A stretch of DNA of 64,000 nucleotides from contig CAVVUN010000015.1 of NCBI GenBank assembly GCA_963751455.1, positions 192,001-256,000 of the forward strand. The letters run 5' to 3'. The notes under the pieces are model-generated. The model had not been told where the DNA came from. It saw nothing but the letters and a program-made list of their open reading frames with translations, and did not search any database. Below are positions 1 to 22,639 of this stretch, one piece after another. Source of the stretch: Nitrospirota bacterium. Lineage in GTDB: Bacteria > Nitrospirota > UBA9217. The translations under genes and the position numbers were made by a program. Each line of letters begins with the position of its first letter. Positions within the stretch are counted from its first letter, which is position 1.

Positions 1-221
1 AACACCGACCTTTGAACTAACCATTCCGCAATTGAGTACTCCACACTCAGCACATGCAGCCTGTCCTCGACAGGAATTAATCGGGGAACGCTCAGCACGC
101 TATGCGCCATGCCCCATGTGCCATGCGCCTCACCCTTCCCACTCAACTCCTCAACCACTGAACAACTCAATTGGTCTCTATACCAGACGCTCTGCTCCAT
201 GCGCTATGCTCTTTGCGGAGG

Positions 222-416
222 TCAATCACCCAGGCATGTTTCCTCAATGATCGCATGCGCTTCATCCCGATTGAGCTCGTCCTGCTGATAATATATGTAG
301 TCGTCAACCATGCTGCAGACTTTTTCCCGCGGTGCATCGGGCATAATCTCGAGAACTTCCTCTTTAAATAACCTGGCAGCGTCAGGCGCCATTTCTTTTT
401 TTTCGATCCTGTTCAT
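222..416 (-). CDS. small hypothetical protein (64 aa, MNRIEKKEMAPD...)
   Basis: ORF 222..512; an internal ATG at 416 is preceded by a GGAGG RBS on the minus strand; no recognisable motif. Confidence 0.5.
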   Translation of the reverse strand: MNRIEKKEMAPDAARLFKEEVLEIMPDAPREKVCSMVDDYIYYQQDELNRDEAHAIIEETCLGD

Positions 417-766
417 AGTGCCTCCCTTCCCATTCCGGAATCGTCCCCTGTTCTTATCCAAAGTATACCAGAGGATTACGAATGAAAAGGCAGCGCTCTG
501 CTTCATAATCAAAGCTACCCATCAACGATAGCCCACCTCCCTTACCCATGATAGCAGCACTCAGTTTGCGTTTTATTTTTGCTTGAAAAGATTTAGGAAG
601 TAACGGGCAGCGTCACGTCTTAAAACTCCGAACGCTGCTTGCTCTAAAATCTTGTCCTCGAAGGATTCTATCGGGAAGCCTTTATCTGGGGAAACGCGCA
701 ACGTGGAACTATAGTAAATGATGTGCATCGTGTCTCTTCCTCAATCTTGAAAGTGCGACTCAATCA

Positions 767-878
767 ATACCCCGCAGCAAGCTGACGGGGTATAAAGGTA
801 AATTGTTCAACTGAGAAACCTGCGGTTTCTCTTACTCTTCCCTCTATACGGTGACCACGTAGCAAGCTACGTGGAATA
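767..878. mobile_element. non-autonomous mini-element with two IS200/IS605-like subterminal hairpins
   Basis: Hairpins ATACCCCGCAGC-AA-GCTGACGGGGTAT (767-793) and CCACGTAGC-AA-GCTACGTGG (855-874) share an AGCAAGCT core; a third hairpin GAGAAACC..GGTTTCTC lies between them; no transposase. Confidence 0.5.
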
Positions 879-917
879 GCAAGTTCAAATAATATTTCGA
901 AAAAAGAACAAACGTTA

Positions 918-1561
918 ATAGGTGAGACCTGACCCTAAGATTCTCCTAAGATTCTCTCTAAGATTCTCTACGATTCTCTCAAAACTAAAAACTAGCAACT
1001 GTATTAGACGGTGCATCGTGTCCTCTTTCATCATGCGTTAAAATTACCCGATTTACGATATCCAATAATAGCGATCCATTAAGCCTCTAGTGGAAAAATT
1101 CACGAGTAAAACTCTGAATGTTAATGGGTGAGGCCTGAACCTAAAGATTCTGGTAGATTAAGCCTCTGGCGGAAAAAATCTCCAGGTAAAATCCCGAATG
1201 TCAACAGATGAGACCTGACCCTAAAGATTCCTTTTCCTCGATGATAGAAACTTCCTGGCCAACGATAGCAATCGTCTTTTCCATTTTACTCTGAACTCAG
1301 AACTGAGAACTCCGAACTGTAATTCACGATAGCCTACTTTCTTTCCCACGATAGCAATTCTTTTTGACTTCTGAACGCAGCCTGCCCCGAGACAGTCTAT
1401 TCGGGGAACTAAGAACCGTGAACTGTAATTACTCACGTTCATCATGCGTTAAAATTACCCGATTTACGATATTCAATAATAGCGATCGATTAAGCTGTGG
1501 CGGGAAAAAATTCTCTGGTAAGACTCTGAATGTTAACAGGTGAGACCTGACCCTAAAGATT
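918..1561. repeat. four degenerate direct copies of a RAYT terminal motif (GAGACCTGACCCTAAAGATT) in ~75-125 bp units, plus a short (CTAAGATTCT)n run
   Basis: Motif near 924, 1130, 1210 and 1542; 1027-1150 is nearly identical to 1438-1561; the motif is the reverse complement of the sequence upstream of the RAYT genes at 20727 and 26021. Confidence 0.85.
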
Positions 1562-2485
1562 TTTTTTCTCGACACCCTGAAGCCGTACAAGGAGCAGATC
1601 GTCGGTATTGTTGTCGAATCTACATTCAACTGGTACTGGCTCGTGGATTTGCTTATGGATGCAGGTTACCGTGTTCATTTAGCCAATCCTGCAGAGATTC
1701 AAAAATATTCCGGGCTTAAGTACTCCGATGATCAGGACGACGCTTTCTGGCTGGCCGAGATGCTTCGCTTGGAAATCTTGCCTGTAGGATATATCTACCC
1801 GAAGGAGGATCGCCCTGTTCGGGATCTCTTTCGAAAAAGGGCGCATCTGGTGAGGGTCCGCACATCATTGATTCTGGGACTCCAAAATATCATCGCGCGC
1901 AATAACGGGATCAGGCTCAAACCAGATGATGTGAAAGCGTTACGAACAAATCGCATCGCTCCTTTGCTTGAGCACGACGAAGACCTGGCGCTGGCTGGTC
2001 AGGTGAGCAAGGATTCTATAGATTTTCTGACGCGCCAGATCAAAACAGTCGAACGGGTCCTCGAAAAAAAAATGGATCTCCGGGAAGGGTACGGCGAACT
2101 CCGCACCCTTCCCGGGGTAGGGAAAATCTTGGGCCTTACCATCATGCTGGAGACCATGCTGGAGACCGGCCCGATCAGCCGTTTTACCAAGGTCGGCAAC
2201 TACGCATCCTATTGCCGGAAGGTCTCCAGTAAATGGATCAGCAACGAGAAGCAAAAGGGCAAAGGGAACAAGAAGTGCGGCAACAAGTATTTGGCATGGG
2301 CCTTCTCCGAGGCGGCTGAAATTGGGCGCCGCGAGAATGAGGATGTACGGGCTTATTTCAACCGCAAGTCACAGAAGACGAACAGGATGGTGGCGCATAA
2401 CGCTCTTGCCCACAAATTAGCGAGAGCTGCCTATTACATCATGCGGGATGGAGTTTCATTCATGCCGCAGAAGTGTTTTGGATGA
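1562..2485 (+). pseudogene. IS110 family transposase, 5'-truncated
   Basis: The frame is open from 1562 (..IVVESTFNWYWLVDLLMDAGYRVHLANP..KYSDDQDDAFWLA..LPGVG..GNKYLAWAF). The N-terminal strand with the first DEDD Asp is missing, cut exactly at the repeat motif. A 12-bp tandem duplication gives MLETMLET. Confidence 0.85.
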
Positions 2486-2892
2486 AGGTTGGCTGGGACG
2501 GTGAACCAGTATTGGGGTTGGCAGAACCATGAGAAGTGATTGGTCAATCCGTCCCACCCCTTTTATATCGTTATCAGCGTCTTTACTGCCCGTGCCGCGA
2601 GCCTTCACCGGGTTGGCTTATAACCACGAGACGTGAAAAAACAATTTGGACGCGGCAAGGAGCCGAAGATTTTCTGGTCCCGCGATGCGGGAAAGGGTCA
2701 CGGATAAAGCCTTACCGATGACCGTGATCCTGATGGGTGACTGGTGCAGTGAAAAAACTGACGCCGAAACCTAAAGAAACTGCGGCAATGGTCAAGACTG
2801 ACGATGACGAAAAGGCTTGACGAGAAACGTTTCCGTTTCTCGTCACAAGATAGCTTTTTTCCCTTGACAGTGTCCTTTAAATGGGCGACCCC
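2486..2892 (+). ncRNA. long structured 3' non-coding end of IS110; candidate bridge/seek RNA
   Basis: ~400 bp non-coding tract with stems (GGGACGG..CCGTCCC; GGTCACGG..CCGTGATCC) ending in CTTGACAGTGTCCTTTAAATGGG; IS1111-type IS110 elements encode their guide RNA 3' of the transposase. Confidence 0.5.
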
Positions 2893-3129
2893 GATCGACG
2901 CCGAAGCGATTCCTATGGTATCCACTTGTTGTTGGTTTAACAATCTCCCTTATTTAGCCCTATAAAGATAGCCGCAAAATGGCATTTTTCCCGTCTCAGC
3001 GACCCGTGAATAGTTGAAATTGCGTTGCATTTGCATTACAAAGTATCTATTTCTGTTAGATCAGCACTTATGGCGTTATTCAATTATAGATTTTACTTTC
3101 AAAATCAAATAGTTTAAAAATTGCTAATT

Positions 3130-3145
3130 TGGCATTACACGTGCA
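3130..3145 (+). promoter_or_regulatory. sigma54 (-24/-12) promoter of operon 1
   Basis: TGGCATTACACGTGCA has GG-N10-GC spacing, 45 bp upstream of the ATG at 3191 (RBS AAGGAGG); IHF-like AATCAAATAGTT just upstream; a sigma54 activator is encoded in the same cluster. Confidence 0.75.
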
Positions 3146-3190
3146 TCATATAAAATAATTAAAATTTATGGCGGTTTAAGGAGGTTAAGC

Positions 3191-3865
3191 ATGGGCAACG
3201 AACTCTTATATGAATATCTAGCTGGAAAGATTCTCCAAGATCTGATTTCCTCTGTGCCATTGGATAATAATTTGGCAAAAGAACTGAATAAATATCCAGT
3301 AATCGATCACATAAGAGATCAGGTCCAAGACGTTCATTTTAGCACTATTTCAAAACTTATTGCTGCTAAGTCTTGCTCAAAAGAAGTGAAGCAGTTAGCA
3401 GTTGGTCTCTTGCACAAGTATATTAGGGCTGAAAGACATGGGACAGAAATTAAACTTTTACTGTCTGATCTCTGGGAAACAGGTGACATGGAAGAGAAGT
3501 TTCATGTTATGTGGCGATTGCTGGATTTCGGTGACCTTGAAGAAAGCTTCCATTATGAGATGTTTGCATTTTTAAAGAGCAATAAAGATTATATTCTGTC
3601 CAAAACATTAGGTTGGTGCGGCTCTGAAGCTAAAATTCTGGACTATGCTGCCTCAAGACTAACAAACAAGTCTTTTCCAAAAACAAAATCCTGGATTTAC
3701 TTATTTATTGCCTCTCTCAGTCCTGACAAAGAGAATGCAAAAAGTCTTATTTCAAAATATGCTGATGGCGCCCAGCCTGTCCTCCGCAGAGTTGCCGATG
3801 AAATTATAGACGAACTTGACTCTTCTGAATTACAAACCTTCAACGATCAAGTTTGTTTTTGTTGA
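3191..3865 (+). CDS. hypothetical protein (224 aa, probably all-helical)
   Basis: ORF with a strong RBS directly behind the sigma54 promoter; no recognised motif. Confidence 0.8.
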   Translation: MGNELLYEYLAGKILQDLISSVPLDNNLAKELNKYPVIDHIRDQVQDVHFSTISKLIAAKSCSKEVKQLAVGLLHKYIRAERHGTEIKLLLSDLWETGDMEEKFHVMWRLLDFGDLEESFHYEMFAFLKSNKDYILSKTLGWCGSEAKILDYAASRLTNKSFPKTKSWIYLFIASLSPDKENAKSLISKYADGAQPVLRRVADEIIDELDSSELQTFNDQVCFC

Positions 3866-4116
3866 AGTCCATAAAGGATCCCAATTGTTTTTAATTTAAG
3901 CGACTTTAAAAGCATTACTAAAGATAGGTCTGATTCATCAACAATAAATGATTAATATCCGAAGGCCAAATGATCAAAAGTGACTAAATTAAAGATCTTA
4001 TTTCTATCACAGAGGGGGGCCCTACTGATTAAAAGCTCATTGATGTGTCAAACGTTCTCACCATCAACGAATAAACGGATGAAGCAGAATATCTTTTGTG
4101 AAAGCGAATTAATCCG

Positions 4117-4812
4117 ATGACCTATGAGTTCCCTGCTCTCCTCCCAAAGCTTTATAGTTTCACAGAGCCGTTTATTTTTTCAAAAATACTTTCTGATTCA
4201 AGAGTATTGGACGTAGGTTGTGGAGATGGTTATCTCACTAAAAGAATAATAATGAATACTAAGGCAAAGCAGGTCGTGGCAGTAGATATAAATGGCGACA
4301 TATTAATGAAAGCTGAAAGAACTCAGGCGGATACCAGAATAGAATATGTTCTTGGAGATGGCGAAGATTCCGAGCTATTTAAAATAATTGGTGGATTTGA
4401 TTTTATACTTCTCAGAAACACATTTCATCATTTTGATGATAAGGAAAAATTTTTAACAAATTTCTACAATCTTCTCAACAAAAGTGGTGTACTTCTAATC
4501 CTCGATTTGGACAAAGAAGCGAACTATTCCTTGCTGGGATTGCCTATTCCTTTACTGGTGACATTCTGGCAATCAGTTAAGATTAACGGTTTAATAGAAA
4601 CAACAAAAATATTATGGAATACTAAATTCTTTTTAAATAACACATTCAGAATGCACCGACATGAAGACCGGCAAAAACTTAAGCTTAGCGGGTGGCTGAC
4701 ATTCCAAGAAGTTAGCGAGAAAGTCATGAAACTTCTTCCCGGATGTAAGGTAGCTCGTTTGGGCAGCGTGTGTGGCTATGGAGGTTGTTATTATGTACTG
4801 TATCAAAAATGA
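4117..4812 (+). CDS. class I SAM-dependent methyltransferase
   Basis: VLDVGCGDG (motif I), VAVDIN, FDFIL..FHHF, LNKSGVLLILD. Confidence 0.9.
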   Translation: MTYEFPALLPKLYSFTEPFIFSKILSDSRVLDVGCGDGYLTKRIIMNTKAKQVVAVDINGDILMKAERTQADTRIEYVLGDGEDSELFKIIGGFDFILLRNTFHHFDDKEKFLTNFYNLLNKSGVLLILDLDKEANYSLLGLPIPLLVTFWQSVKINGLIETTKILWNTKFFLNNTFRMHRHEDRQKLKLSGWLTFQEVSEKVMKLLPGCKVARLGSVCGYGGCYYVLYQK

Positions 4813-5601
4813 TAATATCGGTTTCTGCGCTGAAAATGTTTCCAAAACCTTCGATTCTAATAACCAGCAGGAAGTTGTTTTAAAGGGATTCGATATCACA
4901 ATTGATCGAGGCGAATTTATTTCTATTCTAGGCCTTTCCGGCATAGGGAAAAGCACCGTATTTAAAATTTTGAGCGGTCTTACAGAACCTACAGATGGTA
5001 ACGTTACTTACGGCGGTATCCCCGTTAAATGCGCATTATCGCAACGCAAATTCAGCTGTGTTTTTCAACGCCCTGTACTGGCTGATTGGAGAACCGTAAT
5101 AGAGAATGCCTTATTGCCGCTCGAAATCTTAAGACCCAAAGACAAGGCAAACATTGATATTGCAAATAACCTCCTTAAAGCAGTCGGTTTGGAGAATGAT
5201 TTGTCTAAATATCCGAGAGAATTGTCTGGGGGCATGCGGCAAAGATTGAGTCTTGCGATGGCCCTTTCATACGATCCAGAAGTTCTCTTTCTCGATGAAG
5301 CGTTTGGCGCTCTCGATGCAGTAACTCGGAGAAAGCTTCAATCTCTCCTACTAAATATCTGGAGTGTATCTAACAAGAAACAAACGGTCATTTTTATAAC
5401 ACATGATGTGAATGAAGCTTGTTTTATGGCAGATCGAATATTTATTCTGAACAGGAAACCAATTTCAGTAATAAAGGAATTGATGATCCCTTTTCCAAGA
5501 CCCGGGATTTTAGTTTATTATATTCACCAGAATTCAAGGACATTGCGGAAGAGGCGTATAAAAGCATTGAATGCAATGGAGTTGAGAAATGTGTACTGTG
5601 A
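4793..5601 (+). CDS. ABC transporter ATP-binding protein, nitrate/sulfonate/pyrimidine (TauB/ThiZ-like) type; 1-nt frameshift near 5501-5506
   Basis: GLSGIGKST, LSGGMRQR, LFLDEAF, ITHD. The family-typical C-terminus PFPRP-RDFSLLYSPEF continues in the frame of ORF 5419..5601. Confidence 0.88.
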
Positions 5602-6200
5602 TTTCTGAAAATTCGATGGGGATCGCCTGGTTGATGTGTTTGAAATGGATAATTGAAAACGGCGATCAAATATTGGATGAAGATGTTAAATTAAATGAAT
5701 ATATTTCCCTTGTGTTAGATGTCAATCAACCTGATCAACTTGATTCAATAACCGAATCATTTTGGGCTTTGAAGTTCTGCGATGTTCAGCCTAAAACAAA
5801 AAATATTTTCGATTATATGTCAAGACTTAACAATTATAACGGCGTTAATCAGATTGATGTTATTCGAGATCGACTGCTAAGTAAACCCGAGACAAAATCC
5901 GCGACTGTAATAACTCTAATGCCCAGCAGTGATATTCAGAGAGTGCCATGTTTGGTATCCGCTGATTTTAAAATAAGGGGAGGAAAGTTGATAACGCAAT
6001 CTTTTTTTAGAAGTCAGGATGTATGGAACAAACAACCTTTTAATTTATTACTTCTAAAAAACGTTGCATCATTCTTAGCTAATGACCTTAATGTGAGGCT
6101 TGGGTCAATTAAACTGTACATCGCGTCTGCTCACATTTACGAGAGTGACCTTCAAGAAGCGACAACTTTCATAAAGGCAAATCATAAACATGGAATTTAA
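5589..6200 (+). CDS. thymidylate synthase-family pyrimidine C5 (hydroxy)methylase, short archaeal-like form
   Basis: NQIDVIRDRL..P, catalytic VPCL, RSQD....PFN, SAHIYE. Confidence 0.88.
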   Translation: MCTVISENSMGIAWLMCLKWIIENGDQILDEDVKLNEYISLVLDVNQPDQLDSITESFWALKFCDVQPKTKNIFDYMSRLNNYNGVNQIDVIRDRLLSKPETKSATVITLMPSSDIQRVPCLVSADFKIRGGKLITQSFFRSQDVWNKQPFNLLLLKNVASFLANDLNVRLGSIKLYIASAHIYESDLQEATTFIKANHKHGI

Positions 6201-6753
6201 TACTGGCCAAGTAGCTGTACTGGGCAAGGAAAAGATTAATCCGGAAATTCCGGAGCACCTCTATGCAATGGAAGAAGGTTACTTATTAGGAAAAGCACTT
6301 GGTCGAAAAAAGATAGTGGTTATTACTGGCGGGTTGGGTGGAATAATGGAAGCAGTCTCAAAAGGTGTGGCTGAATCCGGAGGTGTCTGTGCTGGCATCA
6401 TCCCTGTTTTATCCGAAGAAGAAAAGGTATTGAGAAAGCCAAATAAATATTCAACAGTCAAGATTAATACAGGGATGGATCAGCGATTGAGAATTCCGTT
6501 ACTTATTCGTTCGAGTGACGCCATTATCGTGATTTCAGGAGGCATGGGTGCGTGGCTTGAAGCAGCTTTTGCTCTGGCAAACGGACTTCCAATCATAACC
6601 TTGCCAAAAACTGGGGGAACTGCTGCGAGATTAGTATCGGAAAATCCATTTAAAGACAAAGTCCTCATTGCAAAAGATGGACTACATGCTGCTGAAATTG
6701 TGACTAATTTATTTAAAAAGGGGAATAAAGATGAAAACATTGTTGAAAAGTAA
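6190..6753 (+). CDS. LOG family (TIGR00725-like) nucleotide phosphoribohydrolase
   Basis: ITGGLGGIMEAVSKG..GG...GIIP, TGMDQRLR, SDAIIVISGGMGAWLE. Confidence 0.88.
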   Translation: MEFNTGQVAVLGKEKINPEIPEHLYAMEEGYLLGKALGRKKIVVITGGLGGIMEAVSKGVAESGGVCAGIIPVLSEEEKVLRKPNKYSTVKINTGMDQRLRIPLLIRSSDAIIVISGGMGAWLEAAFALANGLPIITLPKTGGTAARLVSENPFKDKVLIAKDGLHAAEIVTNLFKKGNKDENIVEK

Positions 6754-7729
6754 ACAGCTATTTGCTATCCTCTTATTTGCATTCTTCCTGGCTCTCGTTA
6801 GTTCCAATGCAAAAGCAGAGAAGCTGTCAAAAGTCAAGATCATGCTCGATTGGAAGCCAGGAGCCGAGCATTCCTTTCTTTATTTAGGACAAGAAAAGAA
6901 TATTTTCAGGGACAATGGTATTGATTTAGAAATAGTTCCAGGACAAGGTTCATCATACTCCGTTAATATGGTTGATGCAAGAAATGTTGACTTCGCTCTT
7001 TGTGCTGGCGAGTCCGCGCTACAAGGACGCAGCAGTGAACCACAGCGGAGCATTAAGGTACTTGCTATTTTCTATCCCAATACGCCAGCATCCGTTTATT
7101 CTTTAAAATCAAAAAATATTAAGAAACCGACCGATCTTTACGGCAAGAAAGTCGGTGTAATGAAAGGATCCTCTGCTTATAAGCAGTATCTAGCTTTTGT
7201 TGAAAAAGAGAACCTTGATAAGAATAATATAATTGAAATACCCTCTGCTGGAAGTATTCAAGAAATATTATCGGGAGACCTTGATGCTATGGTCCATTTT
7301 TCATTTCAACATCCTTTGCAGGTGAAGTTGAAAGGATATGGGATAAATGAAATTTTATTTAAGGATTACGGCGTAAAAGTTTACGGTCAGGGACTGATAG
7401 CGAGTGATGATACCTACAACTACAAAAAGGACTTAGCGAAACGAGTAGTTAAATCTGTAATATTATCGCTTCAATACTCATTGCAGCATCCAGAAGAAGC
7501 TTTGGGCGTATTTTTCAAGCTTTTCCCTGAACAAGATAGAGAGTACTCGAAAGCAAAACTGAACTGGGTTAATAGCTTTATCGAGCAAGGACAACACAAA
7601 GGGCAGCCTCTTGGGTATCAGGACGAAGAAGGTTGGAAAGCAACTCAATCTTATCTGTTGAGTCAGGGCCTCATCGATAAGAGTATTTCTCTAAGAAGTC
7701 TTTATTCTAACGAGTTCCTTGTAAGATGA
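6731..7729 (+). CDS. ABC transporter substrate-binding protein, NMT1/THI5 (ThiY-like) family
   Basis: Signal peptide; LDWKPGAEH..LYLGQEKNIF..NGIDLEI; IKKPTDLYGKKVG; VYGQGLIA. Confidence 0.88.
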   Translation: MKTLLKSKQLFAILLFAFFLALVSSNAKAEKLSKVKIMLDWKPGAEHSFLYLGQEKNIFRDNGIDLEIVPGQGSSYSVNMVDARNVDFALCAGESALQGRSSEPQRSIKVLAIFYPNTPASVYSLKSKNIKKPTDLYGKKVGVMKGSSAYKQYLAFVEKENLDKNNIIEIPSAGSIQEILSGDLDAMVHFSFQHPLQVKLKGYGINEILFKDYGVKVYGQGLIASDDTYNYKKDLAKRVVKSVILSLQYSLQHPEEALGVFFKLFPEQDREYSKAKLNWVNSFIEQGQHKGQPLGYQDEEGWKATQSYLLSQGLIDKSISLRSLYSNEFLVR

Positions 7730-8512
7730 AAAATATTTCGGTTAAATATTTGCTTGCTTTGTCGTTAGCCATTTCCTTATTGTTATGGGAAGGAATCGTC
7801 AGACTCTTTAATGTTTCAGCGGGCATATTCCCACCCGTCTCGATTGTCCTGGTGAAGATTTATGTCAAAAGAAATCTTTTATTCACTCACTTATCTTATA
7901 CGTTACTCGAAGATCGTCCTCGGTTTTGTCATCGGATTTATGACGGGGATAGTGCTTGCATTGATTTGTGACAGAATCACGATTATAAAAAAGATCCTTT
8001 ATCCGATACTGGTCTCCTTCCAATCTGTCCCTAAAATAGCAGTCGCGCCTCTTTTTGTTATCTGGTTCGGCTATGGGTTATTACCGAAGGTTATGATGGC
8101 TGCTATGATTTCTTTTTTTCCAGTTCTAATAAGTACTATGGCAGGATTAAGCGCTTATGATGAAGAAGTTAAAATGTTTATGGATATGCTTAATACTTCA
8201 TGGTGCCAAAGAATGTGGAAAATAAAGCTCCCTTATGCGATACCCTACATACTGACTGGCAGTAAAGTATCGATAACATTTGCAGCTGTAGGCGCTATAT
8301 TGGGTGAATTTGTGAATCCTAGCAAGGGGCTCGGGTATCTGATAGACATTGGTAAGGAAAATTTCGATACATCTTTGCAGTTTGCAGCAATTCTGCTGGT
8401 AAGCATCATGGGTTGGATCCTTTTCGAGGCCATATCTTTAATCGAGCTATTCTTCTTTAAGAAATACTCAAGATCTGTGTCCCAAGAAGGAATCGATACT
8501 CGATATGTCTAA
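7726..8512 (+). CDS. ABC transporter permease (SsuC/ThiX-like); 1-nt frameshift at 7910-7911
   Basis: WEGIVR..IFPP..YTLLE joins IVLGF..QSVPKIAVAPLFVIWFGYG..KLPYAIP..GAILGEF if one A is removed from CTCGAAGATC. Confidence 0.88.
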
Positions 8513-10055
8513 TCCGAAATTAAATACAATCGCACATTGGAGGGATAAAATAAATTTTGCTTATTTGGCAAGCAGCGGCGTCGAAGACTGCGCCGAGCGA
8601 ATTACCGACATTATTGAAAGCCCTGATTTTTTGTCTTTTCTATGGAAAGAGTTTTCATATTGGCGAGCGAATATTTATACGTCAGATCCAGACGGACATT
8701 TTGAGTGCCTTCATAGGGGCATAGACAATAAGAGACTTGCTTTTCAGATCAGAGTGCCTTGGCTTTGTATTCACATGGACAATAATGGGACACTTTCGCC
8801 AAAACTAGAAAGAGCTTATAAAGTCATAAGAAACAGTGAAAAACCGCAATTAGCTGACGAGAATTTTCGAGATGAATATGAAGCAAAATTATTTGATAAG
8901 AGACAGAGAGAGGAGATTACAAGTTCAACACGGCTTTATCATTGGTACAAAAATCACTGCAAAGATATGCGCAGATTTAATGAACTTTGCATTGTAGTAA
9001 CCGAAGGGGAGATGCTCTTCTATCGACTGATGACTGATCTCGACTTTAGGGGCCAAATAACGGCGAGAGAAACGAATAAAGTGATTGAATGGATAAACGA
9101 CAATGCAAAAAATAACGATGTCATAAATCTCATATCTCCACTAAAAGTGGCCGACTTCATTAAAAGTCTTCATGGAAAAAAAATTACGTTAACTACAGAT
9201 CGGGTAGACTTAGCATGGGATACTACTAAAATTAACCCCAAACGCGAAATGACTATCTTGAAAAGCAGGAATATTGTTTTTTTCCCGTGTGGCAAATTTT
9301 ATTCGCATGACCACTTATCTGAGGTTTTTTTCTTAGGCAGCTTTTATGATACTAAAAAGATGTTGGATAATATATCTGCTATTATTGCATTGTTCTCGGA
9401 TTTAGCTTTCAAAGGAATTAGTTTATATGAGCAGAAGCTTGGTGAGGAAAAACTCATTTATGATAGGCATCATGAATTCGGCAATACCATTGCGCGGTTA
9501 CAAAGTACCTTTAATCGAAATTTATCTCCAAACCAAAAATTACGAGAAATACGAAAGAAAATAGCTCTGCTTAGGGAATGCTATTATGACTGGATAGACC
9601 CTAAGCGTCTTGAGTCAATTGAAAAGGTCGATATTTCTCAAATATTAAAAGAACTAAAGAATTTGTCGGAATCAACTCCGTATCCCAAGCATTTCAGCCA
9701 TCTCAAAAGCATTTATTATGTCAAAGCGAACAAGAGACTTCTTTCGAGTTCTATATTCGAACTTATACGTAACTCTATCAAACATACAAACGAAACACTC
9801 ATAGATAATTACCTTAAAATCAGTGCCAAGATAGAAAATAACAGAGTATTTATAACGATCTCAGATATGGCAAACAGTCTTACAGAAGAGATTTTCAAGG
9901 AATCTGCAAATAATCCTATTTTGAACCAGAACGGAGCGCATAAAGGTTTATATACTTCAAGAAAATATATCGAAAAACTTGGCGGCACTCTTTCGTTTCA
10001 TCCTAAACAGCCGAGAGGATCAATATTAATTATAACTCTTCCAGTGGAGCGATAA
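8505..10055 (+). CDS. soluble sensor histidine kinase with a large unrecognised N-terminal domain
   Basis: H-box HHEFGNTI, N-box ELIRNSIKH, degenerate G1 (ISDMAN), G2 HKGLYTSRKYIEKLGG; no obvious TM segment. Confidence 0.8.
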   Translation: MSNPKLNTIAHWRDKINFAYLASSGVEDCAERITDIIESPDFLSFLWKEFSYWRANIYTSDPDGHFECLHRGIDNKRLAFQIRVPWLCIHMDNNGTLSPKLERAYKVIRNSEKPQLADENFRDEYEAKLFDKRQREEITSSTRLYHWYKNHCKDMRRFNELCIVVTEGEMLFYRLMTDLDFRGQITARETNKVIEWINDNAKNNDVINLISPLKVADFIKSLHGKKITLTTDRVDLAWDTTKINPKREMTILKSRNIVFFPCGKFYSHDHLSEVFFLGSFYDTKKMLDNISAIIALFSDLAFKGISLYEQKLGEEKLIYDRHHEFGNTIARLQSTFNRNLSPNQKLREIRKKIALLRECYYDWIDPKRLESIEKVDISQILKELKNLSESTPYPKHFSHLKSIYYVKANKRLLSSSIFELIRNSIKHTNETLIDNYLKISAKIENNRVFITISDMANSLTEEIFKESANNPILNQNGAHKGLYTSRKYIEKLGGTLSFHPKQPRGSILIITLPVER

Positions 10056-10056
10056 A

Positions 10057-11580
10057 ATGAACTTTTACAGATTCCTTGTCGTTGATGATGAAAATGATAT
10101 TCGACATAGTCTGGAAATGCTTCTTAAAAAACATTATAAAAAGTCACAAGTCTTCACTGAAAGTAACGGTGTGGATGCAATTAAAACATTAAGACATAAT
10201 AAAGTTGATCTGATTATTTCGGATATGATAATGCCTGCTATGGATGGGATGGATTTACTGCATCAGGTGAAATCGGAAATGCCTGATATTCAGTTTATTA
10301 TGATAACCGGATATGCGACAGTTGAAAGCGGCGTACGCGCTATGAAAGAGGGGGCATCTGACTATATAACGAAACCTTTTGATGAAGATGCTGTCATACT
10401 TCAAGTATCAAGATGTCTCAAAATGAAAAAATTGCAGGAAATCGATCTTAGGAATTCGGCAGCTCTTGAGGGATTAATTTTTAAGAGTAAAAAGATGAAG
10501 GAATTAACAGATGAAATTGAAAAAATTTCTGCTGAAGAAGCAGAAGTTCTAATTACGGGAGAATCAGGCGTCGGTAAAGATTTGGTGGCAAGACTCATTC
10601 ACTACAATCATAAAAGTAAGCGTAAGACTTTGCCTTTTTTGAATCAAAATTGTGCTGCAATACCTGACAGCCTTTTAGAAAGTATATTATTCGGTCACAA
10701 AAAGGGTACTTTTACAGGAGCAACTGACGATGCGGATGGGCTTTTCAAAAAGGCAGACGGGGGAACAATATTTCTGAACGAGATAGGCGATATGCCTCTT
10801 CTATTACAAGCAAAAGTTCTGAATGTAATTGAGAGCCAAGATTTTAGACCGGTAGGTGGTACAGAGAACATAAAAGTGAATGTGAGATTAATTTCTGCAA
10901 CTAACAAGGACTTGAGTGAAGAAATCGAGAAAGGTACATTTAGAAGTGATCTTTACTGGAGGATTAGTACATATCCGATAAAAATCCCAGCTCTGAGGGA
11001 AAGAAGAGAAGATATCGCAGACTTGTCAAAGCATTTTATTAAAACTATTTCTATTAATAATGGGAAAGAAATTAAAGATATTTCTTCTAATGCTCTTTCG
11101 CTTCTTGAAGCATATCCTTTCCCAGGAAATGTAAGAGAATTACGAAGTATTATTTTGCGTGCTAGCATTTCATGCAATGGTGATATGATCGAACCCGCGC
11201 ATCTCCCAGAATATATCAAATCATATAAAGAAGGTAATGCAAGTAAAAAATTTACCGATCTCTCTAATATTGGATTGGCAGACGTAGTAAAGAGTTTTCG
11301 AGCTCACGGCTCTTTCGACAAGTCAGATAAACTGGGACAGCTAGTAGAAAATATAATTGACCAAAACAAGGGCAATGTTACTGAACTCTGTAGTAAATTG
11401 AAAACCACTTCTTTAAGCTGGCAAATCGGAACTACACCTGACAAAATAAATCGCGCAGTCAATCAAAGCAATGGGAAGCTTTTCTATGCTGTTGTTGATA
11501 ACGGAAAAGTCAAAAAATGCGAGCAGAAAAGAAAAACGAAGAATTGCTTTGTCTATGCAGCCAGCAAATTAAACGACTAG
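10057..11580 (+). CDS. sigma54-dependent response regulator (REC-AAA+, NtrC family)
   Basis: LVVDDE, ISDMIMP, YITKPF; GESGVGKD, GTFTGA, FLNEIGD, ATNKDL, FPGNVREL. Confidence 0.93.
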   Translation: MNFYRFLVVDDENDIRHSLEMLLKKHYKKSQVFTESNGVDAIKTLRHNKVDLIISDMIMPAMDGMDLLHQVKSEMPDIQFIMITGYATVESGVRAMKEGASDYITKPFDEDAVILQVSRCLKMKKLQEIDLRNSAALEGLIFKSKKMKELTDEIEKISAEEAEVLITGESGVGKDLVARLIHYNHKSKRKTLPFLNQNCAAIPDSLLESILFGHKKGTFTGATDDADGLFKKADGGTIFLNEIGDMPLLLQAKVLNVIESQDFRPVGGTENIKVNVRLISATNKDLSEEIEKGTFRSDLYWRISTYPIKIPALRERREDIADLSKHFIKTISINNGKEIKDISSNALSLLEAYPFPGNVRELRSIILRASISCNGDMIEPAHLPEYIKSYKEGNASKKFTDLSNIGLADVVKSFRAHGSFDKSDKLGQLVENIIDQNKGNVTELCSKLKTTSLSWQIGTTPDKINRAVNQSNGKLFYAVVDNGKVKKCEQKRKTKNCFVYAASKLND

Positions 11581-11726
11581 CAATACATTTATAATCCATT
11601 TGCTTCGCATTTGCCGCAGAAAGTTCGCTAGTAAAATAAAATAACTGCCTCTCGCACAAACCTCCATCCGCATAAGTCCTTATTTCAAAAACGATATCTC
11701 TATCCCCACTCCGATATGTTACCCCT

Positions 11727-11742
11727 TGGTACTAGCTTTGCA
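11727..11742 (+). promoter_or_regulatory. sigma54 (-24/-12) promoter of operon 2
   Basis: TGGTACTAGCTTTGCA, GG-N10-GC spacing. Confidence 0.75.
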
Positions 11743-11852
11743 TATAACTATGTAATTAAGTCTTCAGTTGATATTCACGTGAAGAAGTAGACTTTTTAAA
11801 AGGGGGTAAAACTAATGCATAAAATAAAAATTGATTATGGGTAGATAAAAGC

Positions 11853-11971
11853 GCTACCGACGGCCGTTCCAGCGGCCATCGGTAGCTGGGCAGGAAACCA
11901 TGCAGTCCCTTGTCGGTCCTACAATGAGCCCGCCGTACCGTAAATATAACATTTTTATAGTCGGCGGTCTC
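11853..11971 (+). ncRNA. structured GC-rich 5' leader (unidentified cis-regulatory RNA candidate)
   Basis: Long hairpin GCTACCGA-cGGCCG..CGGCC-aTCGGTAGC (11853-11886) and GAGcCCGCCG...CGGCGGtCTC (11926-11971) ending just before the AGGAGG RBS. Confidence 0.5.
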
Positions 11972-11990
11972 CAAAAAAGGAGGTTCACCC

Positions 11991-13268
11991 ATGGAACAGA
12001 TCGCTGACATTAGCAACCGGCGCATTATTAAACGGAATTCTGGACTTACCGCAACAGCAGCTGCTTTTTGCCTCGCTCCCTTCTTCTGTGATGGGGCAAT
12101 TCCAAAACGTATCGAGATCGAAGACATCGAAAAGATTTATTCCAGCCACACACCTCTCATTGTAAAACTCTTGACCGCAGATAGCGGTTGGTATGCCATC
12201 AGTGGCAAAGAATTATTCCTTACACACGAAGGCGATGCATCACAGCTGCATGTCGGCGAAATGACTTGGATGGCATCATCGCTGGCAGCAATGATGGACG
12301 GCGGGCGACATATGAAGGGAGTCATCGCCGCGAGCAAAATAATAGGGTCAGCAAGCACCTATACTCCATACCTGAAAGAAATTAAAACGATTCTCGACAG
12401 TGGCGGGATCACTCAACTGGTGGAAATCGGTCAAGGTTCCGGAGAGTGCATTTGCCAACTGCTTGCCTCGTACCCGACTGTCACTGGTTTAGCAATCGAT
12501 CTCGATCACGAAGCAGCAAAATTAACAAACAAGACCGCCAGCAAATTCGGCGTAAGTGACAGACTAACCGTAATTACCGGCGACGTGAATGACGGCTTGC
12601 CCGAGGATCACTTGTCCGGGAAGATGCTCATAATCGCGGGGTTCGTAATGCACGATTTTGTCGATATCGCCGCGGGAATCCAAACATTGAGTAGGGTAAT
12701 CCCGGTTGGCACGAGAGTCGTTCTTGCGGAGTTGGTCAGTAAGGTATCAGACGATCCGTTCGCAACCGCGATTATCGGGTTCCATTGTAAAAGTGGAAAA
12801 GATATTCCATCAACCGATCAGTGGAAGCAGATATTTCATGACGCCGGTCTTCATGTCGAAAATATCGAAAAGTACGCTGTAATGCCCGGGGCGGCAATAT
12901 TCAACCTGGTAAAATCTAATCCAACACCTCGTTTCATCCCAGCGGCGCAAAAGATATTTTCGAATCATGATGAGGAAGTTTTTACGCTAGATCTGGCCGC
13001 GCTCCAGCTACGGCACGCAGTAGAATCCGCCCTAGTGGATATGTCCCAATTTCCTGAAGGAATCAGTTCTGGTCACACTCACGACTGCGATGAGACGTAC
13101 ATCATTACTTCCGGCGTTGTCGATGTAATTGTTGATGGGGTGACCAAGCAGGTAACGGGGCCAATCGCGGTTTACATCCCTGCCGGATGCACCCATCATT
13201 GGAAGCCGGTTGATGTAAAAAAAGGCGATCATATAATCGGTTTTTTCACAAAGGGAGGTTCAAAATGA
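11991..13268 (+). CDS. MppJ/MrsA-like (2-oxo-acid C-methyltransferase-like) SAM methyltransferase fused to a C-terminal cupin
   Basis: EIGQGSGE..L..YP.VTGLAID, GFVMHDF and GFH...IPSTDQW..IF..AG resemble MppJ; cupin HTHDCDE...IPAGCTH. Confidence 0.7.
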   Translation: MEQIADISNRRIIKRNSGLTATAAAFCLAPFFCDGAIPKRIEIEDIEKIYSSHTPLIVKLLTADSGWYAISGKELFLTHEGDASQLHVGEMTWMASSLAAMMDGGRHMKGVIAASKIIGSASTYTPYLKEIKTILDSGGITQLVEIGQGSGECICQLLASYPTVTGLAIDLDHEAAKLTNKTASKFGVSDRLTVITGDVNDGLPEDHLSGKMLIIAGFVMHDFVDIAAGIQTLSRVIPVGTRVVLAELVSKVSDDPFATAIIGFHCKSGKDIPSTDQWKQIFHDAGLHVENIEKYAVMPGAAIFNLVKSNPTPRFIPAAQKIFSNHDEEVFTLDLAALQLRHAVESALVDMSQFPEGISSGHTHDCDETYIITSGVVDVIVDGVTKQVTGPIAVYIPAGCTHHWKPVDVKKGDHIIGFFTKGGSK

Positions 13269-14335
13269 TCAAGCATGCATTAAAAAAAGGGATCTTATTC
13301 AAACCTATAATCGGCGCGTCGATTCAGAATCCTTCGCTTGCGAAACTTTTTGCTCATATTTACGCGCTTGCCGGAGCTCTTCTTATAGATGTTCGAGGAG
13401 AAGCAAAAATGGTAAGGGCTGTCAGAGAGGGTATAAAGGAAGCAGGCGGATCCACAGCAGTAATAGCAAGCGTCAGCCCCATGCAGAACGATCCGCATTT
13501 TTTAAAGGCAGCCATCGACTGGATGGCTTGCGAAGGTTGCGGACAGTGTGAGGCTGTATGCCCACATGGCGCGATCAGCATTTTGGAAATCAATAAGGCG
13601 AGAGTTACAACGGAGAATTGTCGTGGTTGCGGTCATTGTTTGGACGTATGTCCGTCAACGGCCATTAAGCTGACCGATCCAGAACGTGCCGATTCGCTTC
13701 AAGGGATTGTGCGTGAATGCATGGACGCTGGAGCAGACAGTATTGAGTTTCACCTGAGCGGAATGAACGATAATGAAGTCCATTCTGTTATCAGCAGTCT
13801 GAAAGATGAAATCCGTACCATTAATAGCGGAGGTTATCCCGTTTCGATATGCGTTGGTAGCCTTCAATCTAGTCCTGCTGAGATACTCGAAGTAGTGAAA
13901 ATGCTGATCAGTCTTTTAGGAAGTGAAGGCTTCTTTATACAGGCTGACGGCGAGACAATGGCAGAGACAAAGCGTGGCTACGGTCTCCAAAGTTTAGCAC
14001 TTGTATCGCTCATTACCGGTGCTTATCCGAATGTAAGGGTTATTGCAAGCGGCGGGACGACTGAGAAGACCTGGGATGTAGCAAGAATGTTAAAGATACC
14101 GATCTCAGGCATTGGGATGGGGCTACGATCCTTTGAGGCCGTAAAACCTTACATTTTCGGTGACCAAATTTCAGATGTGACAGACGCTGTCAGCGCGGCA
14201 AGAACTCTATCGTGTCCGTTCGAATCAATGAACAATGACCACGACGAAACACTTTTCAAGGGCAGTGCGTGGCATACTTTGAATTCAAGGGAGGCATACA
14301 ATGAAACAATCATTACAGAATCCAAATGGTCTTAG
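13265..14335 (+). CDS. LdpA-like 2x[4Fe-4S] protein
   Basis: FKPIIGAS, YALAGA..IDV, DPHFLKA, two CxxCxxCxxxCP motifs, GADSIEFH, QADG, SGGT follow the cyanobacterial LdpA pattern. Confidence 0.8.
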   Translation: MIKHALKKGILFKPIIGASIQNPSLAKLFAHIYALAGALLIDVRGEAKMVRAVREGIKEAGGSTAVIASVSPMQNDPHFLKAAIDWMACEGCGQCEAVCPHGAISILEINKARVTTENCRGCGHCLDVCPSTAIKLTDPERADSLQGIVRECMDAGADSIEFHLSGMNDNEVHSVISSLKDEIRTINSGGYPVSICVGSLQSSPAEILEVVKMLISLLGSEGFFIQADGETMAETKRGYGLQSLALVSLITGAYPNVRVIASGGTTEKTWDVARMLKIPISGIGMGLRSFEAVKPYIFGDQISDVTDAVSAARTLSCPFESMNNDHDETLFKGSAWHTLNSREAYNETIITESKWS

Positions 14336-15074
14336 GATCTTTTTCGAGGAAGAGCTTTCGAAGTTCGTCACTTTCTTAAAGGTAGGCACTGAGTCTGAGG
14401 CTATGATGTTGCCATTCATAGCAATGCTGATAAACCTTGTGCGTAAGGAGAAGGTTGTTTGTAAAATTGGAGGACCTGATGCGCGCACAGACATTCATGA
14501 GATGTATCGGATCGGTATTCTTCGGTTTGTCGGTCCTATGATTGAGTCGCCCTTCGGTGTAAAAAAATTTATCGAGGCGATTACGAAAACCGTAGGATTG
14601 AGTTCAATTGAGGAGCTTACGATTAATGTCGAATCCATTACTGCATTCAACCAAATCGACGATATCCTTGCCGCTTCTAATGACCAGATCCATCGAATTA
14701 ATGTTGGCTTCAGCGATTTAGCAGCATCTGTTGGGGGCACAGTGACGGATCTGGAGCTGCTGAGAATGGCAAAAGAACTTCGAAATCGGTGCAAAATTAT
14801 CGGCAAGGAGTTCAGTTTTGGCGGAACGGTTACACCTGAGAATATTGAAAAGCGTCTTGAGTTCCTGGAACCGGATGGTTTTGAAACGAGGATGTTCGGA
14901 TTCTCTGGGACGATAGCTAATGCAGCCGTGGTGGTAAAAAAAGCTCTTGAGTTCGAGGCCGCTGTAGAAAGTTATTTCGCAGCCAATCAGCAGCGTCTCG
15001 TAAACGCAAGTATAAATCGTGCGGCATCCATTAACAAAAGATTGACAAGTGATTTTTTTACACTTGTCGCTTAA
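14301..15074 (+). CDS. HpcH/HpaI aldolase / citrate lyase beta family protein
   Basis: KIGGPDA, PMIES.F, INVES, G.SDLAAS, FETR. Confidence 0.8.
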   Translation: MKQSLQNPNGLRIFFEEELSKFVTFLKVGTESEAMMLPFIAMLINLVRKEKVVCKIGGPDARTDIHEMYRIGILRFVGPMIESPFGVKKFIEAITKTVGLSSIEELTINVESITAFNQIDDILAASNDQIHRINVGFSDLAASVGGTVTDLELLRMAKELRNRCKIIGKEFSFGGTVTPENIEKRLEFLEPDGFETRMFGFSGTIANAAVVVKKALEFEAAVESYFAANQQRLVNASINRAASINKRLTSDFFTLVA

Positions 15075-15126
15075 CACACAACGACGGGGGAGGTAACGCC
15101 TCCCCCAATTATAAAAGGAGATTATC

Positions 15127-15855
15127 ATGACAAACATACTTCACTATAACGCCCCTGATTTAATGGAATTTGATAGTGTAATAACCGGCATCCGCAGTGA
15201 TGGCAGCGAAGTAATATTGGCGGAAACCTGCTTCTATAGCGAAGGCGGCGGGCAACCGAGTGATTTTGGACAAATAGATGTCAACGGTACGATATACAAA
15301 GTTACTGCAGTAAGAACCCTCGGGGACACGGTTTACCATAGCGTCGACCGTAATGTTACGAGTGGAATCGTCGGTGCAACCGTCCACGGCAGTGTAGACA
15401 AGGGCAGAAGGAAGTATCATTCTCGGCATCATAGTGCCTTGCATTTGCTGAATGCGTTTATGTTTCAGAACTTTAACGTCCGTGTGACAGGCGGGCAGGT
15501 GGGAACCCCCGGCGAGTTCAGTCGGCACGACTTTGAGCTTGATCGGGGTCTTTCACTGGAAGAACGGAGTCGTTTGGAAACATGGGTAAATCAGATCATT
15601 GCAGAAGACCGGCCTGTCACGGCAAGAATCTTTTCCGAAGAAGAAGCAAAGCTCATTCCGGGTTTCTGCCGAACACGTAACGTTGATATCCGAAAAACCA
15701 ATGGCGGAATAAGAGGAATAGAAATAGCAGGAGTCGACATCCAGGCATGTGGAGGAACTCACGTGAGCCGCACCGGAGAAATCGGTAAGTTCAGGGTTCA
15801 GAAGATTGACAACAAAGGATCGAATTTACGGCGAATCAAGATTATGCTCGCCTGA
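15127..15855 (+). CDS. alaX: free-standing alanyl-tRNA editing protein (AlaX-M type)
   Basis: TCFYSEGGGQPSD.G, HSALH (HxxxH), CGGTH (CxxxH), TGEIG. Confidence 0.92.
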   Translation: MTNILHYNAPDLMEFDSVITGIRSDGSEVILAETCFYSEGGGQPSDFGQIDVNGTIYKVTAVRTLGDTVYHSVDRNVTSGIVGATVHGSVDKGRRKYHSRHHSALHLLNAFMFQNFNVRVTGGQVGTPGEFSRHDFELDRGLSLEERSRLETWVNQIIAEDRPVTARIFSEEEAKLIPGFCRTRNVDIRKTNGGIRGIEIAGVDIQACGGTHVSRTGEIGKFRVQKIDNKGSNLRRIKIMLA

Positions 15856-15871
15856 TTAAAATTAATTTCCT

Positions 15872-15912
15872 GGGAAAGGTGAGATGGGAAACCCACCTAT
15901 CTCACCTTTTTT
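15872..15912 (+). terminator. Rho-independent terminator ending operon 2
   Basis: AAAGGTGAGATGGG..CCTATCTCACCTTT followed by a T run. Confidence 0.8.
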
Positions 15913-16062
15913 CACATGACCAACATGATTTCAATATAACATTAATTTGCTTTTTCGAGATGTCAGAATGGAGAATTTCGATTATTCATTTGATTCGCAA
16001 AGGACGCCTTTAACCTGCCAATATATAAAAGCAACTTAACCTCTGAACACTTTAAATCTGGC

Positions 16063-16090
16063 TTGACAAAAAAATGCAAGTCTATATAAT
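16063..16090 (+). promoter_or_regulatory. sigma70-type promoter
   Basis: TTGACA-N16-TATAAT upstream of the DNA methyltransferase. Confidence 0.7.
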
Positions 16091-16224
16091 CGGAAATACC
16101 ATCCAAGATAGGCACTTTCCTCTCGGCCAATAACAATTAATGCGGCCACCTGTAAATGTTAAATCAGAACCTTACTGTTTATCTCAAGCATTTTAACAAG
16201 GAGAGTTGTTAAGAGAAGAGCACA

Positions 16225-17442
16225 ATGAAGAAACTCGAGAAATTACGGCCAATCCACCCGTTTCCGGCTAGAATGGCGCCGGGTATCGCCTTTGATGTTT
16301 TGGCTGAAGCAAAAAAGCCATTACGGGTTCTGGATCCCATGATGGGTTCTGGTACTGTGCTCGCTGTGGCCCGATCTAAAGGTCATCGCGCTATTGGTAT
16401 TGATATTGATCCGCTCGCTGTTCTTATTTCAAAAGTTTGGACAACTTCGGTAGATCCGGACGCTGTGCAGGACAAGGCAGTTGATGTTCTTGATCGAGCA
16501 GTAGATATCTTCGCAAGGTTACCAACCCGAAATGCATACCCTCGTGGGGCAGATCAACTGACGCGACAATTCATTACATACTGGTTTGATGATTATGCTC
16601 GGAGACAACTTACATCGCTAGTAATGGCAATAGAGCGAGTTAAGGATGATACTGTTCGCAACCTGCTCTGGTGCGCTTTCTCTCGGCTTATCATCACTAA
16701 GCAGTCGGGAGCTTCTCTCGCAATGGATCTATCTCATAGTCGGCCTCATAAGTCTTTTGCTCGTGCACCTGCTAAACCCTTCAGAAACTTTCTTGGCATG
16801 GTAAATCGCGTTGTTCCAAATTGCATCGATAAAAATTCTAAAAATCGAGGGCCAGCAACACAAACATATGAAGGGGACGCTCGCGCATTGCCGCTTGAAA
16901 GTCATTCAGTAGATTTGGTCTTGACATCTCCTCCTTATTTAAATGCATTAGATTACATCCGTTGCAGCAAATTTACATTAGTCTGGATGGGATACAGGAT
17001 TGAGGAGCTTCGACGTTTGCGAAGTCAGAGTGTCGGTACTGAATCATGCAGAGCGAAGATAGCTGACGATAAAGATATTGCTCATCTCATCACTGACTTA
17101 AAGTTACGGCCCGCTCTTGGGACAAAAGATAAAAGACCTCTTGCACGGTACATCTATGACATGCGTCTAGCCGTACACGAAGTTTCCCGCGTTCTTAAGC
17201 CGGGTGGCAGGGCCATCTATGTAATTGGTGAGAATACGATCAAGGGTACCTATATTAGAAATTCGCATATAGTGTCTGCCGTGGCAGAGCTTGCTGGGCT
17301 TAGTCTCATTGAGCGACGTGTACGAAGATTACCAGCAAATCGGCGTTACCTTCCGCCGCCGACGTCACGTCATAGCGTTGCTGCGCTAGATGCACGAATG
17401 CGAAGTGAAGTGATATTGTCATTTAAAGGAGTTGTGCCTTAG
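16225..17442 (+). CDS. DNA amino-methyltransferase (probably N4-cytosine, alpha motif order)
   Basis: HPFPARM, motif I LDPMMGSGT, motif IV LTSPPY, RVLKPGG. Confidence 0.88.
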   Translation: MKKLEKLRPIHPFPARMAPGIAFDVLAEAKKPLRVLDPMMGSGTVLAVARSKGHRAIGIDIDPLAVLISKVWTTSVDPDAVQDKAVDVLDRAVDIFARLPTRNAYPRGADQLTRQFITYWFDDYARRQLTSLVMAIERVKDDTVRNLLWCAFSRLIITKQSGASLAMDLSHSRPHKSFARAPAKPFRNFLGMVNRVVPNCIDKNSKNRGPATQTYEGDARALPLESHSVDLVLTSPPYLNALDYIRCSKFTLVWMGYRIEELRRLRSQSVGTESCRAKIADDKDIAHLITDLKLRPALGTKDKRPLARYIYDMRLAVHEVSRVLKPGGRAIYVIGENTIKGTYIRNSHIVSAVAELAGLSLIERRVRRLPANRRYLPPPTSRHSVAALDARMRSEVILSFKGVVP

Positions 17443-17492
17443 AAAATTATTAACAAGACCTAGGGCAATAAGCACGTATCTATCATGAGTTT

Positions 17493-20781: not shown

Positions 20782-20786
20782 AGCTC

Positions 20787-22591: not shown

Positions 22592-22639
22592 GATCACATC
22601 CACTTAACCTCTTTCAGGGCAGGTTTAAGGCCAGCCTAT

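Follow-up and report, generated by a model that had tools for sequence, protein, structure and literature searches.

Which product is made by a run of thirteen co-oriented genes in a Nitrospirota genome, and do the two units of this run belong together? We analysed a 64,000-nucleotide stretch of that genome (the window; assembly GCA_963751455.1, contig CAVVUN010000015.1, positions 192,001 to 256,000), where the genes occupy 3191-15855 on the + strand as 14 open reading frames (ORFs). Domain families were assigned by Pfam/NCBIfam profile matches. A first-pass annotation of the same DNA had also seen thirteen co-oriented genes, as the ORF calls confirmed, and most of its domain calls agreed with the profile matches, the LOG label excepted. 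With moderate confidence, we read the block as a composite island: a beta-methyl amino-acid cassette with an AlaX guard (unit 2, g10 to g13) lies behind a probably separate thymidylate-synthase (TS)-like and kinase module (unit 1, g1 to g9), whose activator may drive the promoters of both.

Unit 2 and its predicted product

Unit 2 holds four genes:
11991..13268, +: g10, predicted SgvM/MppJ-type 2-oxo-acid C3-methyltransferase fused to a MarH/StnK3-like cupin (sequence and fold matches)
13265..14335, +: g11, LdpA-like protein, predicted TIM barrel with an inserted 2x[4Fe-4S] domain (profile and model)
14301..15074, +: g12, HpcH/HpaI-like metal aldolase fold, with Glu111 and Asp139 kept
15127..15855, +: g13, stand-alone AlaX tRNA deacylase, with HxxxH at 102-106 and CxxxH at 208-212

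The methyltransferase part of g10 had its best PDB matches in SgvM and MppJ, both by sequence and by predicted fold (predicted local distance difference test, pLDDT, 67), and the rows listed for ranks 1-18 of the fold search were all SgvM or MppJ. In SgvM, which methylates alpha-ketoleucine at C3, the metal ligands are His244 and His296 (PMC10502145). These ligands align with His221 and His265 of g10, which are also kept in two related cassettes, L007 from a Nannocystaceae genome and L081 from a metagenome. SgvM, MppJ and MrsA are 2-oxo-acid C3-methyltransferases with two His metal ligands (PMC10502145), and g10 is likely, from its sequence, to be an enzyme of the SgvM/MppJ type. The candidate name MrsA 2-ketoarginine methyltransferase was rejected for g10 (TIGR04543, 28 vs. 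a cut-off of 425 bits). No homologue of the fused methyltransferase-cupin was found among 8000 candidates scored.

For the cupin part, a profile made of two sequences (window and L081) matched 7EQK (E=3e-19) and 6J4B (E=7e-18), which we take to be StnK3 and MarH; their lengths of 131 and 126 aa fit the 129 aa of StnK3. The HxH..E..H metal site is kept (His362, His364, Glu368, and His402). Because both metal histidines of the methyltransferase are kept and the cupin matches what we take to be epimerases, unit 2 likely leads to a non-canonical amino acid that carries a beta-methyl group, and AlaX likely serves as self-protection. In described pathways, a methyltransferase, a cupin epimerase, and an aminotransferase together make beta-methyltryptophan (PMC4742848), and the route to beta-methylphenylalanine in the sbz cluster includes an MppJ-like gene (PMC13518217). 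The marI-marH-marG and stnQ1-stnK3-stnR cassettes share with unit 2 a C3-methyltransferase beside a small epimerase-type cupin (PMC4742848). Unlike these cassettes, as the available text presents them, unit 2 has the two domains fused, lacks an aminotransferase and a nonribosomal peptide synthetase in the block, and adds an LdpA-like Fe-S barrel, an aldolase, and AlaX.

The last gene of the unit, g13, keeps both zinc motifs. AlaX genes in small biosynthetic clusters edit the non-canonical amino acid of the pathway, and about 11% of the AlaX family is estimated to mark such clusters (PMC13149037). As in the BesG, AlfB, and FuzB clusters of that paper, a stand-alone AlaX ends a small cluster of free enzymes, with self-resistance as its predicted role. 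An AlaX-protected non-canonical amino acid is a known kind of product (Millar 2026). The earlier proposal of an unusual amino acid with tRNA-editing immunity is supported and sharpened by the L007 and L081 cassettes, the SgvM/MppJ-like methyltransferase, and the AlaX marker (PMC13149037). The narrower label AlaX-M was rejected for g13 (NF040865, 194 vs. a cut-off of 300 bits). A tblastn search of the host genome (G000) with the AlaX protein at 1e-4 returned only itself, and no alanyl-tRNA synthetase editing domain either.

The g11 protein was modelled (pLDDT 75) as a TIM barrel into which a two-cluster ferredoxin is inserted. Foldseek placed flavin barrels first, weakly, and a wide search gave Z of about 18 to many barrels, none standing out. 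LdpA is reported only from cyanobacteria in the available text of PMC5520375; an N-terminal barrel and two 4Fe-4S motifs are common to it and to g11, which differs in scoring far below the cut-off, in its biosynthetic cassette, and in lying outside cyanobacteria. Circadian LdpA itself was rejected as an identity for g11 (NF045992, 90 vs. a cut-off of 450 bits). LdpA_C matched the g11 homologues of L007 and of another locus, L011. As Glu111 and Asp139, g12 retains the two acidic metal residues of pyruvate aldolases of the HpcH type. Enzymes of this type yield 4-hydroxy-2-oxo acids, and such an acid is a plausible substrate for the methyltransferase.

In the pathway that we propose, the aldolase would join pyruvate (or another 2-oxo acid) and an aldehyde into a 4-hydroxy-2-oxo acid. 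The Fe-S TIM barrel would provide or alter that substrate, which is the weakest step. The methyltransferase would then add a methyl at C3, the cupin would invert C3, and a host aminotransferase –or a dehydrogenase, as in L081– would aminate C2. Finally, AlaX would clear mischarged tRNA of the product. Our single best guess for that product, and a long shot, is a compound resembling 4-hydroxyisoleucine.

Distribution of the two units

To locate unit 2 elsewhere, we relied on two scans for the aldolase, one of GTDB genomes (75 aldolase loci) and one of metagenomes (two loci, L081 and L082). Five of the 75 GTDB loci have an LdpA-like neighbour, and one of them, L007, also has AlaX and the methyltransferase: it comprises AlaX, methyltransferase, a separate cupin, LdpA-like protein, and aldolase at 24-37% identity, and its contig ends just after. 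In L081, the fused methyltransferase-cupin, LdpA-like protein, aldolase, and AlaX follow one another in the window order, and a Leu/Phe/Val dehydrogenase overlaps the AlaX stop. The other metagenome locus, L082, repeats the setting of L011.

The genes of unit 1 did not accompany these loci. Among the 75, g1, g4, g5, g6, g7, and g8 were beside none; eight had a generic ATP-binding cassette (ABC) gene, eight a regulator (seven of them receiver-only), and one a weak g2 match. Neither of the two metagenome loci had the unit 1 enzymes, binding protein, permease, or kinase beside it. No TS-like or kinase match was found in the L007 genome, where an incomplete assembly cannot show absence. Since the L007 and L081 cassettes lack the unit 1 genes, unit 2 does not require unit 1 beside it: it is a conserved, rare cassette. 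Joint occurrence of both units was found nowhere else (0/75 and 0/2 loci).

Rarity is also apparent gene by gene. The g12 aldolase has six homologues besides itself among 1219 candidates; a g11-type profile found nothing at 1e-40 in 300 other genomes of the L007 phylum, and the g11 protein of the window had no plasmid match. Searches of an open-access library, judged by their listings, turned up no description of the cassette, and its marker terms do not occur in the available text and eight supplements of PMC13149037, a word search with the figures outside it.

At four loci (L021, L024, L075, and L011), outside typical cyanobacteria, an LdpA-like gene adjoins the aldolase while the other cassette genes are missing. 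A class I/II aminotransferase follows the pair in L075, and patatin-like genes flank it in L011.

Unit 1 as a probable separate module

Unit 1 holds nine genes:
3191..3865, +: g1, 224 aa, no family by Pfam/NCBIfam, possibly HEAT-like helical repeats
4117..4812, +: g2, class I S-adenosylmethionine methyltransferase (PF08241, E=2e-15)
4793..5608, +: g3, NitT/TauT-type ABC ATPase by profile match, start possibly at 4772, 4778, or 4793
5589..6200, +: g4, thymidylate-synthase-like enzyme, with Cys121, Lys103/Ser104, Ser142, and Asn153
6190..6753, +: g5, SLOG cluster4/TIGR00725 nucleotide-binding protein by profile match
6731..7729, +: g6, NMT1/THI5-like solute-binding protein by profile match, with an N-terminal hydrophobic stretch
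7726..8512, +: g7, ABC permease in two overlapping ORFs (7726-7971 and 7862-8512)
8505..10055, +: g8, soluble histidine kinase by profile match, possibly with a GAF-like N-terminus
10057..11580, +: g9, receiver and sigma54 AAA+ activator with GTFTGA, by profile match

The g4 enzyme retains the catalytic Cys121 together with Ser142 and Asn153, and has Lys103 and Ser104 in place of the two trans phosphate-binding arginines of RR-type TS. In 22 aligned g4-like proteins, with the register taken from RR-type viral TS, Lys103 is invariant (22/22) and the Ser near-invariant; the subfamily has 61 proteins, g4 included. Cytidine monophosphate (CMP) hydroxymethylases (MilA/BcmA) are marked by an Asp for cytosine and an Ala for ribose (PMC5175136, available part). 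Because of these marker residues, g4 is classed from its sequence as a uracil-type enzyme, distinct both from ThyA and from the CMP hydroxymethylases of the bacimethrin type: a MilA/BcmA identity was rejected since g4 has Asn153 and Ser142, not Asp and Ala, and housekeeping ThyA on the Lys/Ser replacement of the arginine pair and the TIGR03283 score (113 vs. 175 bits). ThyX is present in the host genome, so g4 is dispensable for deoxythymidine monophosphate (dTMP). Two ThyX matches were seen there (C3:6045-6638 and C15:1683-2252), one with an internal stop.

Searches with a g4-type profile found one hit in 400 genomes of the own phylum, a different RR-type fusion, and none in three further genome searches (0/5, 0/401, and 0/301). 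A Chloroflexi-centred search gave 5/301, all distant (28-33%) and in settings not like unit 1; these five (L101-L105) form a distant stand-alone TS-like group, also without the usual arginine pair. Among four of ten viral TS loci that were examined, none had another block gene, and the three with a visible segment were RR-type. Plasmids gave five matches to g4, at 25-29% identity.

Homologues of the TS-like enzyme and of the kinase probably co-travel. The kinase homologues nearest to g8 (P0072 and P0073) and two of the four nearest to g4 (P0010 and P0013) come from two other datasets and agree pairwise in the length of the longest contig and in contig count: 15,136 bp with one contig for P0010/P0072, and 11,700 bp with three contigs for P0013/P0073. 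From these shared sizes and counts, which are contig metadata and not DNA, both genes probably share contigs, and unit 1 is therefore probably a module separate from unit 2. None of the six aldolase homologues has a longest contig of 15,136 or 11,700 bp.

In such a module, a uracil nucleotide would be modified at C5, the base released and methylated, and a pyrimidine-like ligand bound. The g6 protein matched the pyrimidine-binding protein 3IX1 (E=2e-17). This likeness, the uracil type of g4, and the co-travel of TS-like enzyme and kinase make it plausible that the module produces a pyrimidine and is coupled to a sensor. The base-releasing step would fall to g5, for which the LOG label given earlier was dropped: as a LOG phosphoribohydrolase it scored far below the cut-off (NF058542, 20 vs. 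300 bits), and SLOG cluster4/TIGR00725 was its best match.

Together, a TS-fold enzyme, a base-releasing enzyme, and a methyltransferase recall bacimethrin and MilA, as does the Lys at the Arg126' position, which is Lys103 in g4 (PMC5175136; bioRxiv 10.1101/2025.04.17.649140). Unit 1 differs from these systems, as presented in the available parts, in keeping the uracil-type Asn/Ser, in having SLOG in place of the known releasing enzymes, and in its linked kinase and sigma54 activator. A bacimethrin-like reading, where unit 1 would make a pyrimidine antimetabolite or antivitamin and the kinase pair would regulate a two-product island, is improbable. Its three enzyme roles, a TS-like hydroxymethylase, release of the base, and methylation, match the bacimethrin path (bioRxiv 10.1101/2025.04.17.649140, available part), its Lys is that of MilA, its binding protein is THI5/ThiY-like, and ThyX covers housekeeping dTMP synthesis; however, Asn153/Ser142 stand where MilA/BcmA have Asp/Ala, the base-releasing enzyme is from a different family, and profile searches found neither a ThiD kinase nor a thiaminase in the block.

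The importer proposed earlier for unit 1 is there in its ABC components, but in damaged form. The permease is split, its second ORF beginning at permease model position 59, and uptake in this strain is thus probably impaired. The reading frame of g3 appears to change near 5505, leaving the tail frameshifted with respect to the tail that we presume for the family; our comparison with other ABC ATPases ended before that site. An identical 271-aa g3 product is present on a separate 4337-bp Logan contig, which suggests that the frameshift is more than a quirk of a single assembly; this support extends to g3 and not to the permease split.

The kinase was called soluble in the first-pass annotation, and hydropathy agreed (no transmembrane segment, maximum 1.52). 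Its GAF-like lead scores <=0.90, and its N-terminal part has nine homologues in 1.84 billion representatives and no plasmid match. His323 is invariant, and the glycines of the G1 box are lost in g8 and P0072. For g9, the sigma54 activator claimed earlier stood as regards receiver, AAA+ core, and GTFTGA; a Fis-type HTH_8 did not match in profile searches. Finally, the HEAT-like lead for g1 has an atlas score of 0.92-0.94 with a low recognition score and is a lead only.

Promoters, leader RNA, and possible shared control

What could join two units that occur apart elsewhere? The links between them come down to their adjacency, the sigma54 site before each, and a 15-mer that occurs upstream of both:
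3020..3034, +: 15-mer copy 1, candidate activator site, 109 bp upstream of the -24 box (13/15 shared with 11600-11614)
3129..3145, +: sigma54-type -24/-12 site 1 (motif scan)
11600..11614, +: 15-mer copy 2 (13/15 match), 126 bp upstream of the -24 box
11726..11742, +: sigma54-type -24/-12 site 2 (motif scan)
11752..11990, +: structured unit 2 leader, with mini-ORF, hairpin, and folding
15875..15913, +: terminator-like 14-bp hairpin (15875-15909) and T run

The strict pattern TTGGYA-N7-TGCW has 38 matches in the genome, and the two inside the block are both intergenic. Each reached about P=0.001 in base shuffles, for a pattern picked after seeing the sites. The host genome encodes rpoN. Thus, of the earlier claim of a sigma54 promoter before each unit, both motif sites are real, but the GG-N10-GC pattern on which it was built is meaningless alone: inside the block it has 38 matches on the + strand and 22 on the - strand (60 total). 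A looser sigma54 consensus gave 40 matches in the window vs. 55 expected. Site 1 precedes g1, the gene without a Pfam/NCBIfam match, and a 251-bp gap then separates g1 from the enzyme genes; from g2 to g9, neighbours overlap or abut, and 410 bp lie between g9 and g10. The 15-mer match is weak (P=0.09 in 1000 dinucleotide shuffles); the remaining 36 strict sites score <=11/15 for this motif, which was defined from the two copies of the block. Shared control of both units by g9 is a reasonable reading of these links.

The unit 2 leader folds better than 200/200 shuffles (z=-3.6). A mini-ORF of nine codons (11816-11845), with a ribosome-binding-like site, lies upstream of a 14-bp hairpin (11853-11886), and the leader is possibly an attenuator or a cis-regulatory RNA. 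Rfam gave no match in window positions 1-20000 or in this leader, and one match in the L081 leader was judged to be chance; no known riboswitch was thus found. At the other end, the predicted terminator of unit 2 was borne out by a 14-bp hairpin followed by a T run, which the terminator scan did not list.

Base composition sets the units apart. Unit 1 has 37.7% GC, within the lowest 0.14% of 1422 windows of the host genome (5.72 Mb, mean GC 51.4%), and unit 2 has 47.2%, within the lowest 10% and 9.5 points over unit 1. The block described earlier as AT-rich is so in unit 1 and not in unit 2, and the gap suggests separate origins.

The first-pass annotation had seen an autoinduction circuit in this layout. 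The Lsr/AI-2 (autoinducer-2) and Agr systems are reportedly autoinducer loops with a synthase, an importer, and a sensor, and unit 1 resembles them in a gene run that combines enzymes with an ABC importer, a kinase, and an activator; it differs in having no known synthase family, a damaged importer, and a putative signal and feedback. A literature search for an autoinduction system of this kind returned two listings, both unrelated. In its fuller form –a modified pyrimidine made by unit 1 leaves the cell, is taken up again, and is sensed by the soluble kinase, whose activator switches on both units– the circuit is unlikely. The probable co-travel of TS-like enzyme and kinase, the pyrimidine-binder likeness of g6, the soluble kinase with its GAF-like lead, and the sigma54 sites at both promoters with the 13/15 upstream match would fit it. 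However, no other locus found joins the two units, neither the TS-like enzyme nor the kinase had a match in the L007 genome, the 700 bp upstream of each full cassette (L007 and L081) hold no sigma54 site, and the 15-mer has P=0.09. The split permease, the 251-bp gap after g1, the degenerate G1 box, and an activator without an HTH_8 match also speak against it. With the units apart elsewhere, GC differing by 9.5 points, and the importer damaged, autoinduction is unsupported.

A bolder variant is more speculative still: unit 1 would be a signalling module of a kind not described before, with a GAF-like soluble kinase that senses a modified uracil made by the non-canonical TS, and would have captured an amino-acid antimetabolite cassette; the LdpA-like barrel would be biosynthetic, which would point to an enzymatic ancestry for the clock protein LdpA.

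Genomic setting

An IS110-family transposase with an apparently broken 5' part lies to the left of the block (~1540-2485), with related copies elsewhere in the genome. To the right, a restriction-modification-like block of 40% GC (16225-19878: DNA methyltransferase, Z1-domain ATPase, and a 171-aa protein that weakly matches RecU) sits behind a perfect sigma70 consensus at 16063-16090. Several fragmented, near-repeated ORFs follow (19935-23168 and 26081-27129), presumably similar to REP-associated tyrosine transposases. A known defence system was rejected for the thirteen genes, since PADLOC matched them only as generic methyltransferase, AAA+, receiver, and ferredoxin.

Such flanks would suit decaying modules juxtaposed by chance in an insertion hotspot, a block that no longer works as a unit, as would the two damaged transporter genes and the absence of the whole block from all 40 relatives (0/40), save short generic matches to the activator gene. 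We give this reading a small chance: the frames of unit 2, of the enzymes, and of kinase and activator are open with key residues kept, and each unit has a well-placed sigma54 site.

Strength of the composite reading and implications

Several points weigh against a composite island with a beta-methyl amino-acid cassette. Identity of g10 to characterised enzymes is low (17-20% in the fold search); the window cupin alone is a generic Cupin_2, and its strong PDB match needs the profile that contains L081; and profile searches found no aminotransferase in the block. Four of the five GTDB loci with LdpA-like protein and aldolase lack methyltransferase, cupin, and AlaX, so this pair may act independently of methylation, and the aldolase family occurs mostly in other settings, several of them sugar/polysaccharide loci (as read from ORF starts). 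The host genome has 30 sigma54 AAA+ cores, any of which possibly drives either promoter. The probable co-location of TS-like and kinase homologues is derived from contig metadata, and the predicted functions of the island are derived from sequence and models.

Two partners are new in unit 2: the LdpA-like Fe-S TIM barrel and the aldolase of the HpcH type. With its four genes, the unit is a compact pathway that stands by itself and is predicted to yield a new branched amino acid; it also adds to the alkylation catalysts of the SgvM type. Should the kinase sense the unit 1 product, this would be a new nucleobase-derived signal. For the LdpA family, known as a cyanobacterial clock input without known chemistry, the cassette provides a biosynthetic setting.

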